Assembly: GCA_025336725.1 (NCBI GenBank)
Contig: GCA_025336725.1_3647.1
Source: Escherichia coli
GTDB taxonomy: Bacteria > Pseudomonadota > Gammaproteobacteria > Enterobacterales > Enterobacteriaceae
Strand: one strand, 5' to 3'
DNA length: 64,000 nt
Both the position numbers and the translations under genes were made by a program. The notes beneath the pieces were generated by a model, which was not told the origin of the DNA, did not search any database, and was given only the letters and a program-made list of their open reading frames with translations. Shown here piece after piece: positions 39,509-46,659 of the stretch (position 1 is its first letter; every line of letters begins with the position of its first letter).

Positions 39509-39585
39509 TGGTCTCCACGGAGTGATTCGAACACTCGACCTCCTGATCCCAAATCAGGCGCTCTACCAAGCTGAGCTACGCGGAG
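39509..39585 (-). tRNA. tRNA-Pro (anticodon UGG)
   Basis: Manual cloverleaf: 7-bp acceptor (one G-U), D-stem GCTC/GAGC, anticodon loop UUUGGGA, T-loop TTCGAAT, encoded CCA; 77 nt. Confidence 0.8.
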
Positions 39586-39594
39586 TTTATAATT

Positions 39595-39669
39595 TGGTGG
39601 CCCTGGGTGGAATTGAACCACCGTCTGGCGATTATGAGTCGCTTGCTTGAACCTTCCAGCTACAGGGCC
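39595..39669 (-). tRNA. tRNA-Met or tRNA-Ile2 (anticodon CAU)
   Basis: Manual fold: acceptor GGCCCTG/CAGGGCC, anticodon loop CUCAUAA, T-arm GGTGG-TTCAATT-CCACC, encoded CCA; D-stem only 3 bp; 75 nt. Confidence 0.65.
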
Positions 39670-39670
39670 A

Positions 39671-39746
39671 TGGTGCTGATGGCAGGACTCGAACCTGCAA
39701 CCTATTGATTACAAATCAATTGCACTACCAATTGTGCTACATCAGC
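39671..39746 (-). tRNA. tRNA-Thr (anticodon UGU)
   Basis: Manual fold: perfect 7-bp acceptor GCTGATG/CATCAGC, D-stem GCAC/GTGC, anticodon stem ATTGA/TCAAT, loop UUUGUAA, T-arm GCAGG-TTCGAGT-CCTGC, CCA; 76 nt. Confidence 0.8.
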
Positions 39747-39751
39747 AAAAA

Positions 39752-39850
39752 GGTGCTAGGCGATGGAATCGAACCACCTATGTATTCAACGACTACTTCG
39801 TCTATTTTCAGGATTAAAAATCCTCGCCCTTGCCAAAGGGCCTACCTAGC
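39752..39850 (-). tRNA. aberrant tRNA-like element (Lys-UUU-like anticodon loop, ~30-nt extra segment); possible pseudo-tRNA
   Basis: Good acceptor (GCTAGGT / GCCTAGC), D-arm (GCCC-N8-GGGC) and T-arm (GGTGG-TTCGATT-CCATC), but the anticodon stem is only 4 bp (loop UUUUUAA) and ~30 nt separate it from the T-arm; no encoded CCA; 99 nt. Confidence 0.3.
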
Positions 39851-39948
39851 ATATTATGCGAATCATGCTGCTAGTCGGCGATGACGACTGTAACATTTGT
39901 TAATCCGGTTCTGCTTCCGGAGCTCGCTTAATTTCATGATCCACGATC

Positions 39949-40038
39949 TGGCAGAGAGTAATGGAATCGAACCATCATCGAGGATATCTCAACGGGACGG
40001 TTTTCAAGACCGCTTGAGCACCATGCTCCCTACTCTCT
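39949..40038 (-). tRNA. tRNA-Ser (anticodon UGA)
   Basis: Manual fold: acceptor AGAGAGT/ACTCTCT, anticodon stem-loop GCGGT-CUUGAAA-ACCGT, ~20-nt variable arm with small hairpin, T-arm GATGG-TTCGATT-CCATT, CCA; 90 nt (type II). Confidence 0.7.
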
Positions 40039-40150
40039 TTTTATAAACAACACTGATAATGACACTGATTTTCGAACAGTTAGTGACTAGTATAAACGAC
40101 GATAAACATCAATGTCATTATCTATGTTATTTATCACAAATATGTAATTT

Positions 40151-40237
40151 TGGTGGGGAGTGATGGAGTCGAACCACCCGAGTCGCAATGACAATAGATT
40201 TACAGTCTACACCGCTACCCCTACGGTATAACTCCCC
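40151..40237 (-). tRNA. tRNA-Tyr (anticodon GUA)
   Basis: Manual fold: acceptor GGGGAGT/ACTCCCC, anticodon loop CUGUAAA, 15-nt variable arm hairpin (GTC-ATTGC-GAC), T-arm GGTGG-TTCGACT-CCATC, CCA; 87 nt. Confidence 0.75.
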
Positions 40238-40241
40238 GATT

Positions 40242-40316
40242 TGGCACCCCGTACTGGACTCGAACCAGTGTCAACGGCTTAGAAGGCCGCTGCTTTATCC
40301 ACTAAGCTAACAGGGC
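40242..40316 (-). tRNA. tRNA-Arg (anticodon UCU)
   Basis: Manual fold: acceptor GCCCTGT/ACGGGGT (two G-U pairs), D-stem GCTT/AAGC, anticodon stem GCGGC/GCCGT, loop CUUCUAA, T-arm ACTGG-TTCGAGT-CCAGT, CCA; 75 nt. Confidence 0.7.
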
Positions 40317-40607: not shown

Positions 40608-40708
40608 CNNNNNNNNNNNNNNNNNNNNNNNNNNNNNNNNNNNNNNNNNNNNNNNNNNNNNNNNNNNNNNNNNNNNNNNNNNNNNNNNNNNNNNNNNNNN
40701 NNNNNNNN
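40608..40708. other. assembly gap (run of N)
   Basis: Unresolved bases seen directly in the sequence. Confidence 0.99.
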
Positions 40709-41812: not shown

Positions 41813-41934
41813 AGCTGACTCCTCTTCAGGTTATAGAAAAACTCACTGTATCGCTTTGTAACAAGCTTTTCTATCAATCTGGTGTGATTGCCTTACCTAA
41901 TGTAGTTCACACAGCTGTAGAGCGATTTAGAGGC

Positions 41935-42180
41935 CTTCTTGCCAGTTTCCACACATAAACTTTAAACAAACTCGCGCGGGAGACTCTCAACCGACTCCTT
42001 ACGGCGCTTGCAAGCTTTCGTCGGCGGTCCACATTAGTGCTCGGCCTTTGGCCTGCGCTATAGCTTCGCTACCACACATGTGAACAGTCATGCATGTATG
42101 CACGCCTGTTATTGTGTGCACTATGGAGGCCCGGCATCTCGCCCCTCATAGGCGAGTGCCAATGAAGGGCCGACACTATA
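41935..42180. other. GC-rich non-coding island with nested inverted repeats (candidate structured RNA or cis element)
   Basis: No ORF of 60 aa or more on the minus strand; visibly GC-richer than flanks; perfect palindrome GCTTGCAAGC; hairpins GGCC-TTT-GGCC and CTCGCC-N7-GGCGAG nested within GGCCC...GGGCC. Confidence 0.3.
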
Positions 42181-42315
42181 CCAGTAAGTAATAAATTTAA
42201 AACATAATACTTTAGATCTAGTATATTCTACATAAGTTAAGTATATGTACTTTAGTACCATAAGTACTAGATCTTTTATTTTTTATTATTTAGTTATTTT
42301 AGTTATATTCTTTAT
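42181..42315. promoter_or_regulatory. AT-rich region with 10-bp inverted repeat pair (possible DNA-unwinding element)
   Basis: Highly AT-rich; AGATCTAGTA (42214-42223) and its reverse complement TACTAGATCT (42265-42274); lies directly beside the palindrome array. Confidence 0.3.
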
Positions 42316-42398
42316 GTGTCCGTATCACGGACAGTTAGTGTCCGTATTACGGACAGATGTGTCCGCGTGGCGGACAGTAGTGTCCGTCTCACGGACAG
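42316..42398. repeat. array of four tandem 17-bp palindromes TGTCCGY-N3-RCGGACA at 21-22 bp spacing (iteron/operator array)
   Basis: Four units start at 42316, 42338, 42359 and 42380: GTGTCCGTATCACGGACAG, GTGTCCGTATTACGGACAG, GTGTCCGCGTGGCGGACAG, GTGTCCGTCTCACGGACAG; each core is a perfect inverted repeat with 7-bp arms and 3-bp spacer. Confidence 0.8.
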
Positions 42399-42419
42399 TT
42401 GGTAATCTTTGTGCTGTTG

Positions 42420-42448
42420 TGGACATAAAACATACATACCTTTATAAT
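42420..42448 (+). promoter_or_regulatory. sigma70-like promoter adjacent to the palindrome array
   Basis: TGGACA (42420-42425), 17-bp spacer, TATAAT (42443-42448); the -35 overlaps a DnaA-box-like TTGTGGACA; it would fire antisense to the winged-helix gene. Confidence 0.4.
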
Positions 42449-42472
42449 ACAAATATTTAAGTTTTTACTGGT

Positions 42473-42823
42473 CTAACCAGTTGTCGACATGTGAATCACT
42501 TCTTCTGGTGGTAAAACTTTAGAAAATGTGCATCTTTTCCCTCTCCCTTGTGTGGAAGTTTCAACTATCCCAGCACACTCTAAAGTTCTAACGCATTCTG
42601 CTGCTTTCGTTTTCTTAATCCCTGTATCAGCTGCAATTTTCCTTGTGCTTGGTGTGAATCGTGAATTTCCTCCAAGCTTATACCAGTTGTGCAGATAGCA
42701 GTATACTACCTTGTCATACAGATCAAGAATAACCACCTCTCCTGTTGTAGTATTCAAAACTTTCGACAGAGAAAGTATCCCAAGCGGGACTTTAAGATAG
42801 GGCAGCTTATCCTCATCTTTCAT
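42473..42823 (-). CDS. putative winged-helix DNA-binding protein (candidate iteron/operator binder)
   Basis: 116 aa; C-terminal half PSTRKIAADTGIKKTKAAECVRTLECAGIVE looks like a helix-turn-helix/winged-helix recognition segment; stop lies 75 bp from the palindrome array. Confidence 0.4.
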   Translation of the reverse strand: MKDEDKLPYLKVPLGILSLSKVLNTTTGEVVILDLYDKVVYCYLHNWYKLGGNSRFTPSTRKIAADTGIKKTKAAECVRTLECAGIVETSTQGRGKRCTFSKVLPPEEVIHMSTTG

Positions 42824-42870
42824 ATCTCCTGATTCTCCTTGTGTGGATATTTTCTTTAATATAGCAGGGA

Positions 42871-43425
42871 TTACTCCCTGCTGTCAATATCAAAACCCAT
42901 TGCAAGGCCGTATGCCTCTTCTAGCGGTAACAGTCTCCCCCACACATCCCAACCAACATCCAACTGCCTGCCAAATAACTGTTGTGTGGTTCCGTGAGCA
43001 TGACCAAACAGTTGAACTGATCCGTGGGGCTTTCTGTTCCACGTTGCAAACTGGTAATGGCTCATACAGATCAGATTCTTGTTGTGGCGAAGCTCGTAAT
43101 AATCTACAACCTCATGACAGAACTCTTTCATAATTCTGACAGTCGTCCTTGTGTCATGGTTACCACGAACAAGAATAATATGTCCGTTCAGCATATTTAG
43201 AATTTCAGGCAGTAAGTTGTTGATATTCTTATCCTTAGTGCATGCAATGTCTCCCAAGTGGAACACGGTGTCCCATGGTGACACAATTGAGTTCCACTTG
43301 TCTATGATCCCTGCATTCATGCTATCAAGATCGTGGTTATACTGCGATCTGTGCTTTTGACAAGAATCGAACTCCATAACACGCTGGTGGAGAAAGTGTG
43401 TGTCACTTGTTATAAAATATTTCAT
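42871..43425 (-). CDS. calcineurin-like metallophosphatase (candidate RNA 3'-phosphatase)
   Basis: 184 aa; metallophosphoesterase motifs ITSDTHF, GD (HLGDIA), VRGNHD, and a His cluster (HAHG); adjacent to a P-loop kinase and divergent from an Rnl1-like ligase. Confidence 0.6.
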   Translation of the reverse strand: MKYFITSDTHFLHQRVMEFDSCQKHRSQYNHDLDSMNAGIIDKWNSIVSPWDTVFHLGDIACTKDKNINNLLPEILNMLNGHIILVRGNHDTRTTVRIMKEFCHEVVDYYELRHNKNLICMSHYQFATWNRKPHGSVQLFGHAHGTTQQLFGRQLDVGWDVWGRLLPLEEAYGLAMGFDIDSRE

Positions 43426-45541: not shown

Positions 45542-45889
45542 ATGAAAGTCTGGATAGATGATTTGCGTAACCCAGCTGATTACGGACAGGCAGATGCAGT
45601 TTGGTTTAAAACTTCACAAGAGGCTATGGAGTTTCTCAATACTCCTGCTAAAATGTATCGAAGAGTGACAGAGTGGTTTTTTGACCACGATTTGGGTGAA
45701 GACTCTGATCAAGACGGGTATGCTGTTTTATTGCGCCTGGAAGAGCTATTTGTATTTGGCAAGCCACCTGTTGTTGACAACGTGAAGATTTTCGTGCATA
45801 CTTCTAACCCATCAGCAGCTCGTAAATTTATGCTTGCTGCAGATTCGTTCAGAAAGTTTGGAATAGAGATCAAACAGAACATTTACTGA
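45542..45889 (+). CDS. hypothetical protein
   Basis: 115 aa ORF; conserved-looking Asp-rich motifs (WIDDLRNP, DHDLGEDSDQDG); function unknown. Confidence 0.4.
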   Translation: MKVWIDDLRNPADYGQADAVWFKTSQEAMEFLNTPAKMYRRVTEWFFDHDLGEDSDQDGYAVLLRLEELFVFGKPPVVDNVKIFVHTSNPSAARKFMLAADSFRKFGIEIKQNIY

Positions 45890-45897
45890 GGACACCT

Positions 45898-46659
45898 ATG
45901 CGACGACTGATTATTATCTCTGGTGCTGGCTTGAGTGCTGAATCCGGTATCCCCACCTTTCGATCTGGTAGCACTGCAATGTGGGAGAATTTCAGCATCG
46001 ATGAGGTGTGTAACATCCACACCTTTGCCAAGAACTACTATAAGGTGCATGACTTTTACAATGCACGGCGTGTAGCTCTGGGTAGTGTTGAGCCCAATCT
46101 TGCACATCTCCGGATCGCCGAGTGGTATTCTCGCTGGTCTGGTCGTGTAATCAACCTGACCACCAATGTAGATGATTTGCTGGAGCGTGCTGGTGTAAAA
46201 CATGAAGATATTTTACATGTCCACGGGTATTTGCCAGAAATAGTCTATGAGGACGATGAAGGAAGTAATGTCATTAAAGACGTTGGGTATTCGGAGGTAG
46301 ATGCAGGAGAGTATATTTGGGTTAAGCCTAATGTGGTATTCTTCGGAGAAGTTGCTCCAAAGTACACAGACATGTATGACCTATTGACTTCTCTGACAAG
46401 CAATGATATGGTTATCCTTGTAGGGTGCTCAAACACAGTTATCAATTTTAACTGGGAGCTGTTCCCTGCCTGTAACAAGGGCACTAAGCTGTTGATTGTT
46501 AACAAATACGACTCACAGCATTTGGAGGAGAATGGCATTTCACGTAGTGACATTTACCAGTATGAGGATCGCGGCATTCCTGTTTGGTTTAACGGGGCGG
46601 TTGACGCTTTCTCTGATAAAACATTTATTGAAACTGTAGAAAACTTCATGGAACTTTAA
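45898..46659 (+). CDS. Sir2 (sirtuin)-family NAD-binding protein
   Basis: 253 aa; sirtuin Rossmann motif GAGLSAESGIPTFRSG, catalytic-type His (ILHVHGY), VVFFGE and LVGCSNTV motifs; no obvious Zn-ribbon Cys pairs. Confidence 0.7.
   Translation: MRRLIIISGAGLSAESGIPTFRSGSTAMWENFSIDEVCNIHTFAKNYYKVHDFYNARRVALGSVEPNLAHLRIAEWYSRWSGRVINLTTNVDDLLERAGVKHEDILHVHGYLPEIVYEDDEGSNVIKDVGYSEVDAGEYIWVKPNVVFFGEVAPKYTDMYDLLTSLTSNDMVILVGCSNTVINFNWELFPACNKGTKLLIVNKYDSQHLEENGISRSDIYQYEDRGIPVWFNGAVDAFSDKTFIETVENFMEL

Follow-up and report, generated by a model that had tools for sequence, protein, structure and literature searches.

A candidate iteron-type replication origin of rV5-like phages beside a gene for a small initiator-like protein

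The replication origin of phage lambda consists of four dyad O sites next to an AT-rich region, which are bound by dimers of the N-terminal winged helix of the O protein; this origin lies inside the O gene, becomes active in connection with transcription across the region, and the C-terminal domain of O recruits P-DnaB. A second group of iteron-binding proteins, the RepA_N type, includes RepA of PLE, a Vibrio cholerae satellite, whose N-terminal domain is known from structure 4RO3 and which binds semi-palindromic iterons in gel-shift assays (PMC7145576); replication depends on both the protein and its iterons (PMC7145576; PMC8263062). In the Rep protein of pSK41, a 120-residue DNA-binding domain precedes a dispensable linker, and the DNA encoding this linker holds four Rep boxes and serves as the origin. 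The C-terminal domain that follows is essential and binds DnaG, the host primase (PMC5703833). The N-terminal domains of staphylococcal RepA proteins are represented by 4PT7 and 4PTA, and 5KBJ shows such a domain bound to an iteron (PMC7145576). RepA_N-like initiators are rare in Gram-negative systems, and the PLE protein was reported to be the first one characterised there (PMC7145576). Here we describe a 64,000-nucleotide stretch of DNA from an Escherichia coli assembly (contig GCA_025336725.1_3647.1, hereafter the window) in which an array of four palindromic boxes adjoins an extremely AT-rich tract and a gene for a 116-residue protein. From computational inference, we favour, at a probability of roughly 0.6, the reading that this locus is the iteron-type DNA replication origin of an rV5-like phage, served by an initiator that possesses a DNA-binding domain only.

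A sequence search with the 1.7 kb around the array matches 119 phage records, Vequintavirus genomes such as rV5 and FV3 among them; the closest is Vequintavirinae sp. EcoIv14a_Aya (98% identity), and the others lie at about 90%. To judge by these matches, the window is derived from a Vequintavirus, an rV5-like myophage infecting E. coli, and it corresponds roughly to rV5 positions 23-87 kb. Such phages form a large group used in E. coli O157 typing, biocontrol and therapy, and their origin has so far not been located: we found nothing in the literature on this array, on the TGTCCG box or on any Vequintavirinae origin, nor any marker-frequency data on replication.

A phased array and the adjoining AT-rich tract

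The boxes share the pattern TGTCCG-N5-CGGACA and lie at 42317-42333 (box 1, TGTCCGTATCACGGACA), 42339-42355 (box 2, TGTCCGTATTACGGACA), 42360-42376 (box 3, TGTCCGCGTGGCGGACA) and 42381-42397 (box 4, TGTCCGTCTCACGGACA), with start-to-start spacings of 22, 21 and 21 bp. Each was identified by pattern match and has no strand, and such a box is a candidate site for a dimer of the 116-residue protein. The exact pattern occurs four times in the window, as compared with 0.00 times in 100 dinucleotide-preserving shuffles, and allowing two mismatches reveals no further box in the 64 kb besides the array. For genome-wide counts, the complete rV5 genome (137,947 bp) was put together from three pieces; at no more than one mismatch, its boxes are confined to the four array positions, at 65152-65232. 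A search of E. coli genomes for the array returned no copy, and therefore no sign of a satellite with the same boxes.

A distance of 75 bp (42398-42472) separates box 4 from the point where the 116-residue reading frame stops. Because box 4 faces the stop codon at this distance, the array is 3' of the gene and outside its promoter, a placement absent from the initial annotation of the window. That annotation had reported four palindromes, two helical turns apart and 75 bp from the gene; all four are present, and both the spacing and the distance agree with our measurements, but its start positions fall one base early, on the G that precedes each box. It had further described the boxes as perfect 17-bp palindromes with 7-bp arms (Y/R at positions 7 and 11), which is accurate here but holds for this lineage only. 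Box 2 has CGGGCA as its right half-site in 11 of the 12 genus members, and in most relatives box 3 carries C/A at positions 7 and 11. Taking three or more tandem, helically phased sites in cis to an initiator-like gene as the mark of an iteron array, we find four.

On its other side, the array is abutted by an AT-rich tract without assigned strand (42181-42316; 136 bp, 19% GC), which its composition makes a candidate DNA-unwinding element. Among N-free windows of 136 bp, it is the only one in the 64 kb with a GC content of 20% or less, and in rV5 the tract by the array is the lowest-GC 120-bp window of the entire 137,947 bp (19%, as compared with a genome mean of 43.6%). In composition, it is thus the kind of AT-rich element that adjoins the iterons of an origin. 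Two tandem TTTAGTTAT units (42289-42306) stand within the tract, 10 bp from box 1, as does a GATC-bearing 10-bp inverted repeat (AGATCTAGTA at 42214-42223 and TACTAGATCT at 42265-42274); both the tract and this repeat had been noted initially. An enrichment of GATC was considered and dropped, two sites in 400 bp being the rV5 genome average (5.1 per kb).

The initial annotation had proposed looking for the array in related phages, and it proves to be present and conserved across 12 Vequintavirus sequences. Compared with three related genomes from the 90% clade, identity is 96% over the array, 95% over the AT tract and 98-100% over the segment 42240-42319, as against 87% for the 116-residue gene and 90-92% for neighbouring genes; the non-coding array and AT tract are therefore more conserved than the coding DNA nearby. 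The least conserved part of the locus is the 40 bp to the right of box 4 (42400-42439), at 63% identity. A box-by-box comparison of the 12 sequences (48 boxes) shows that the 22/21/21-bp spacing is kept in all 12 and the left half-site TGTCCG in all 48 boxes. The sole change in the right half-site is an A to G at box position 15, the third base of that half-site, and all remaining variation is found in the central 5 bp.

Two metagenomic contigs belong to the same locus. One of them (L004, 543 bp) carries the array intact together with a variant of the 116-residue gene, in which an internal deletion takes out the helix-turn-helix and leaves an 88-residue product. Both this contig and a second one (L005) end within a few bases of the array; these ends are probably assembly breaks at internal repeats, not physical genome ends.

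The adjacent protein and its flanking sequences

The neighbouring gene (42473-42823, minus strand) corresponds to rV5 ORF 79, and its winged-helix product is a candidate origin-binding initiator, one that would comprise a RepA_N/PLE-RepA-type DNA-binding domain alone. A profile of the protein family run against the Protein Data Bank retrieves 4RO3, the PLE RepA domain, with an E-value of 3e-10 over residues 6-107, and this is the sole convincing structure match; the single 116-residue sequence finds the same entry at 3.9e-5. Through 4RO3, the protein thus shows similarity to a functionally validated initiator. When the 4RO3 sequence was used as the query, only a V. cholerae fragment was found.

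A single-sequence AlphaFold2 model proved unusable (pLDDT 43), and an alignment of six sequences was needed to obtain a model with pLDDT 80 and pTM 0.78. In this model, the protein is predicted to adopt the full-length domain fold, with a winged helix, N-terminal strands and a C-terminal helix. At an E-value of 1e-3 or better, Foldseek matches it only to 4RO3, 4PQL, 5KBJ and 4PT7, with 4PTA following at 1.7e-3; 4PQL carries a generic title only. The assignment as an initiator domain is based on the full-length match together with the sequence statistics, and not on fold class alone.

Annotation resources point in a similar direction. The protein scores 25.1 bits against Pfam HTH_36 (cut-off 25), a marginal match; a helix-turn-helix-like segment had been noticed in the gene initially. 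In PHROGs, whose labels are propagated annotation and not experiment, it belongs to family 12838, 'replication initiation protein'; the weaker matches with a named function are all to replication initiators bar one transcriptional-regulator family (E 0.008), and three further weak matches have no assigned function. The gene was annotated earlier in rV5 as a 'putative transcriptional regulator', several GenBank records give it the automated label 'replication initiation protein', and some mark the array as a 'repeat_region'. The family itself is narrow: apart from Vequintavirus members, HMMER run exhaustively over 1.8 billion representatives and an indexed search among 5.8 billion proteins yielded just two metagenomic sequences, namely P0004, a 194-residue protein that is the only real distant relative from HMMER, and P0010, a fragment. 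The other HMMER matches outside the family were spurious matches to repeat proteins, and no related viral locus was found.

The protein ends at residue 116 and possesses no C-terminal domain for initiation or host-factor recruitment, and this absence is its main departure from known RepA_N initiators. Within the 660 bp downstream of the gene, a GC-rich block was tested for a codon-periodic signal and none was found. This block (41900-42180; no strand) is conserved non-coding DNA beside the AT tract, 88% conserved, and its inclusion in the element is uncertain. Substitutions within it are spread over the codon positions as 8/10/9, as compared with 7/8/29 in real genes; RNA-folding z-scores are just -1.9 and -2.4, and Rfam offers no credible match for the block, the only overlapping one being rli43 at 25 bits against a gathering threshold of 100. 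A hidden C-terminal domain and a non-coding RNA were both considered for 41900-42180 and rejected on these grounds. rV5 carries an 18-bp deletion inside the block, where its annotation places a 56-residue 'ORF 78'; from the substitution pattern, this is probably not a gene.

The gene is predicted to be driven by a sigma-70-like promoter on the minus strand (42858-42887; TTGACA-18-TATATT with an upstream TG), at the position of promoter P76 in the rV5 annotation and about 460 bp from the boxes. No promoter was predicted to overlap the boxes, and no terminator-like site between the gene and the array. A direct repeat occurs here as well, with CCTTGTGTGGATATTT at 42837-42852 and CCTTGTGTGGAAGTTT at 42546-42561. 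The first copy holds ATATCCACA, which we take to be an 8/9 DnaA-box-like sequence on the minus strand; it lies just downstream of the promoter's -10 element, where the relative L004 has ATTGCCACA.

The spacer that separates the array from the end of the gene (42398-42472; no strand) is variable, with 76% identity overall and 63% across 42400-42439, and on this evidence it is probably no functional part of the element. Two features in it had been put forward initially. One is TTGTGGACA (42417-42425), which by our own reading matches 7 of 9 positions of the DnaA-box consensus; the other is a plus-strand promoter, TGGACA-17-TATAAT (42420-42448), which agrees with 11 of 12 sigma-70 consensus positions and begins 23 bp from box 4. 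Both are present, yet the DnaA-like sequence and the promoter's -35 element fall within the 40 least conserved base pairs. Most relatives have GCGAACA or GTGAACA at this place, one keeping GTGGACA, and their counterpart of the promoter reads CGAACA at -35 and TATAGT at -10. Because of this poor conservation, we dropped both as functional parts, and the locus shows no conserved DnaA boxes of the kind that a DnaA-dependent origin would carry.

The box and its layout in other genomes

A scan of IMG/VR for two adjacent boxes identified eight loci (L012-L019) on unrelated contigs of 49-70% GC, whereas two scrambled control palindromes of the same composition found none. The loci hold 2-7 exact boxes each (3-7 in seven of them) at periods of 20-25 bp, and the invariance of their half-sites is built into the search pattern. 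In seven of the eight, the array is clearly inside an open reading frame of 284-419 codons, where it is read as a repetitive linker (for example VRxxD or CPxxGQ). These frames have a common layout: an N-terminal winged helix, the array, short direct repeats that contain TTAG/CTAA and are locally AT-rich, and a C-terminal domain. Four of the eight IMG/VR proteins, when scanned, match replication-initiator PHROGs (phrog_270 or phrog_16167). The layout recurs in a Treponema genome bin (L023), where the HTH_36 domain is clear (38 bits), and with this bin included the box-carrying genomes span 46-70% GC. A cyanophage homologue of one box-carrying initiator has the same layout with different repeats, and the box is therefore not universal to the fold.

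Box pairs and arrays also turn up at bacterial-genome loci (L020-L030). In L028, a pair stands some 400 bp away from a Prim-Pol/DnaB-like gene, and other pairs adjoin a terminase gene (L024) or a RES toxin gene (L027).

These occurrences raise the possibility, which we hold only tentatively and consider more doubtful than the origin assignment itself, that TGTCCG-N5-CGGACA arrays constitute a widespread, previously undescribed class of origins in phages and mobile elements, read by HTH_36/RepA_N-like winged-helix initiators across unrelated hosts, with the Vequintavirinae carrying a stripped-down form. If so, the class would span enterobacterial myophages, high-GC uncultured viruses and Treponema; the Vequintavirinae initiator would have lost its recruitment domain as the origin moved out of the gene, and origin opening alone would suffice for a self-loading T7-like primase-helicase. 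That a single box sequence keeps appearing in initiator genes that are unrelated suggests that there is a recognition code, which might be usable for predicting origins in metagenomic phages.

Within the subfamily, the sister genera Mydovirus and Seunavirus present a related arrangement. They encode a 105-residue protein that matches just the first third of the 337-position initiator family phrog_8102 (E 1e-35), from a gene at a divergent intergenic region, where it directly adjoins a pair of 23-bp dyad repeats and an extended AT-rich tract; the repeats are GCTCAAWTTGAGC-like and the tract has paired AGATCT sites (L006 2489-2760; L007 2454-2726). As in the rV5 type, an initiator N-terminal domain stands alone next to dyad repeats two turns apart and an AT tract. 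The sister genera differ in that the 105- and 116-residue proteins share just about 29% identity over 48 residues, and in that their two repeats are of another sequence and lie upstream of the gene, the rV5-like array being downstream. Because the layout is shared, a stand-alone initiator domain with phased dyads and an AT tract appears to be a feature of the subfamily. Directly behind the 105-residue gene are the NAD-salvage genes for nicotinamide phosphoribosyltransferase and ribose-phosphate pyrophosphokinase.

In the window, the array is situated between a cluster of six tRNA genes (39509-40316) and a point of transcription divergence at about 43.93 kb, and the large terminase gene is about 4.3 kb from it, on the far side of the tRNA cluster. 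A run of 100 N, an assembly gap, occupies 40609-40708 in the region of small open reading frames between the tRNA cluster and the array. At 45542-46659, a 115-residue gene directly precedes a SIR2-family gene and comes after an RNA ligase gene; in the contig of a relative, the counterpart of the 115-residue gene carries the Pfam label cREC_REC, and together these genes could form a module for anti-defence or with a link to NAD. Among database records, 18 titled 'Campylobacter phage' (MG0656xx) have about 90% identity to E. coli rV5-like phages at the array locus, and their host label looks doubtful. One further record, CP057073.1 (L032), is a complete circular rV5-like genome of 137,565 bp that was filed as 'plasmid' pRHB39-C03_2 from a cattle E. 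coli isolate; its array and 116-residue gene are both intact, and the record may reflect a carrier state, or else phage DNA that was assembled together with that of its host.

Origin, rival explanations and known systems

The initial annotation had left origin and master operator equally open. We favour the origin because of the match to initiator domains, the genome-unique site with its AT-richest tract, conservation above that of coding DNA and the recurrence of the box; the operator half of the proposal is left unsupported. On the origin reading, the 116-residue protein would be expressed from its own sigma-70-like promoter (42887-42858), and its dimers would bind the four dyad-symmetric boxes just 3' of the gene, all on one face of the helix given the two-turn spacing. 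The resulting protein-DNA complex would bend or strain the DNA and open the adjoining 136-bp AT tract, where either the phage's T7-gp4-like primase-helicase (rV5 ORF 230) or its Pif1/RecD-like helicase (ORF 237) would enter. Transcription that continues past the gene across the boxes and the AT tract may aid opening in the style of the lambda origin, and it may run into the origin, since no terminator-like site intervenes. Helicases of the T7 gp4 type can load themselves on exposed single strands. By analogy, the missing recruitment domain could be rationalised by the phage bringing its own self-loading helicase.

Several observations weigh against this reading. PLE RepA is a distant match, at 28% identity, and no specific homology of the 116-residue protein to the winged helices encoded by the other box-carrying genes could be demonstrated (hhalign probability 41%, pairwise E 0.003). 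The best-scoring Pfam model is DUF6945 (PF22182), at 26.6 bits against a cut-off of 28, and RepA_N (PF06970) gives no match at E <= 10, so that neither family reaches its curated threshold. Without a C-terminal domain, which is essential in pSK41 Rep, the protein might equally well bind without initiating. Some two-copy box pairs in bacterial genomes adjoin genes unrelated to replication. In addition, rV5 has a second repeat-rich, non-coding region of 2.6 kb outside the window (104.0-106.6 kb), which could be a second or the main origin, a packaging site or a terminus, and because of this region we do not claim the array as the only origin. GC skew was dropped as an origin locator: Kropinski et al. 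tried skew analysis on rV5 and could not define an origin (PMC3606486), and in our analysis the global minimum of the cumulative skew (about 67 kb, with the array at 65.15-65.23 kb) falls at the gene-orientation switch, as they too had observed. Because of this coincidence with divergent transcription, skew is compatible with an origin here, not diagnostic of one.

The 104.0-106.6 kb region (L009 3950-6650) is free of open reading frames and sits at a point of convergent transcription. It contains ACTGTTTAC-like units, GCAACTAT/ATAGTTGC inverted repeats and an exact 20-mer present twice, 294 bp apart; TGTCCG boxes were not found in it.

Of the alternatives, the one that survives best, though we judge it unlikely, is that the array acts as an operator or roadblock through which the 116-residue protein, as a regulator, controls transcription toward the downstream open reading frames and tRNA cluster, or from an antisense promoter beside the array. 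The winged-helix fold is common to many repressors, iteron-binding initiators are often autorepressors too, and rV5 ORF 79 bears the regulator label. The array stands between the gene and same-strand downstream genes, the plus-strand promoter-like sequence (11/12) is 23 bp from box 4, and the analogous repeats of Mydovirus and Seunavirus are in the promoter region of their gene. The sites themselves, however, do not lie at a promoter as those of a repressor would: none is predicted over the boxes, the gene's own is about 460 bp off, and the plus-strand candidate has its -35 element in the least conserved part of the locus, relatives reading CGAACA...TATAGT. Nor would the protein be a 'master' regulator, since the rV5 genome has no other sites at up to one mismatch. 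The best full-length sequence and fold matches, moreover, are to replication initiators, not repressors, and an operator would leave the strongly conserved, AT-richest tract unexplained.

Less probable again is that the array is some other protein-bound cis site, one that would serve packaging (a pac site), partition-like functions in a carrier state or the blocking of replication. rV5 is reported to be circularly permuted, and in phages of this kind circular permutation implies that packaging is headful and starts from a pac site; the circular 137.6-kb rV5-like 'plasmid' record from E. coli hints at episomal carriage, and the lack of the C-terminal domain would be in keeping with a protein that binds but is no initiator. 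Set against this, the protein resembles initiator domains and not small terminase subunits or ParB or ribbon-helix-helix partition proteins, the large terminase gene is about 4.3 kb away beyond the tRNA cluster, and an abutting extreme AT tract is a hallmark of an unwinding element.

We give very little credence to the palindromes acting as RNA, that is, as four tandem stem-loops in a 3' untranslated region that stabilise, process or terminate the mRNA of the gene: a hairpin of 6-7 bp can form at each box and transcripts from the 42887-42858 promoter probably cover the array, with no terminator in between, but substitutions are not compensatory on either strand (the recurrent change makes a C-A mismatch on the sense strand, and C/A at positions 7/11 of box 3 does so on the other), which argues for a protein reading the sequence, the six-base half-sites keep their sequence, pointing to recognition and not pairing, no U-tract follows the hairpins, Rfam has no credible match, and it is the exact box, not merely a palindrome, that recurs in coding regions of unrelated genomes.

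The origin reading supplies a concrete 220-bp candidate with a named candidate binding protein. If it is correct, a domain-only initiator would show what minimal origin-opening function is needed when the replisome loads itself, and possible uses include phage-dependent replicons and the engineering of rV5-like phages.

Compared with PLE, the phage locus differs in protein, repeats and context. PLE RepA has a C-terminal domain, whereas the phage protein corresponds to the N-terminal domain alone; at the PLE origin there are three repeats, each about 30 bp long and with poly-A at the centre, and in the phage four 17-bp boxes with GC-rich cores; and PLE is a satellite, whereas the rV5-like phage is a 137-kb lytic phage with its own polymerase and primase-helicase. 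The staphylococcal RepA_N proteins of pSK41 and pTZ2162 (4PT7, 4PTA, 5KBJ), whose domains are the next-best matches to the predicted fold after 4RO3, are alike in their domain of about 120 residues, their four boxes and an origin directly 3' of the domain-coding part. In pSK41, however, the boxes are inside the rep gene, whereas the phage frame ends 75 bp before them and no C-terminal domain follows. The pSK41 layout is the one matched by the box-carrying genes of 284-419 codons in uncultured viruses and the Treponema bin, whose arrays have half-sites identical to those of the phage, a similar period (20-25 bp) and short AT-rich repeats, but stand in the linker of larger proteins with a C-terminal domain, in unrelated genomes. 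The lambda origin likewise combines four dyad sites with an AT tract, and the 116-residue protein has weak PHROG matches to 'replication initiation O-like' families; it differs in lying within the O gene, in the C-terminal domain of O and in its unrelated iteron sequences. The candidate origin is of a known kind, an iteron array served by a winged-helix protein, in an unusual form: its putative initiator is cut to the DNA-binding domain, it lies just outside the gene and its box is common to unrelated initiator genes.

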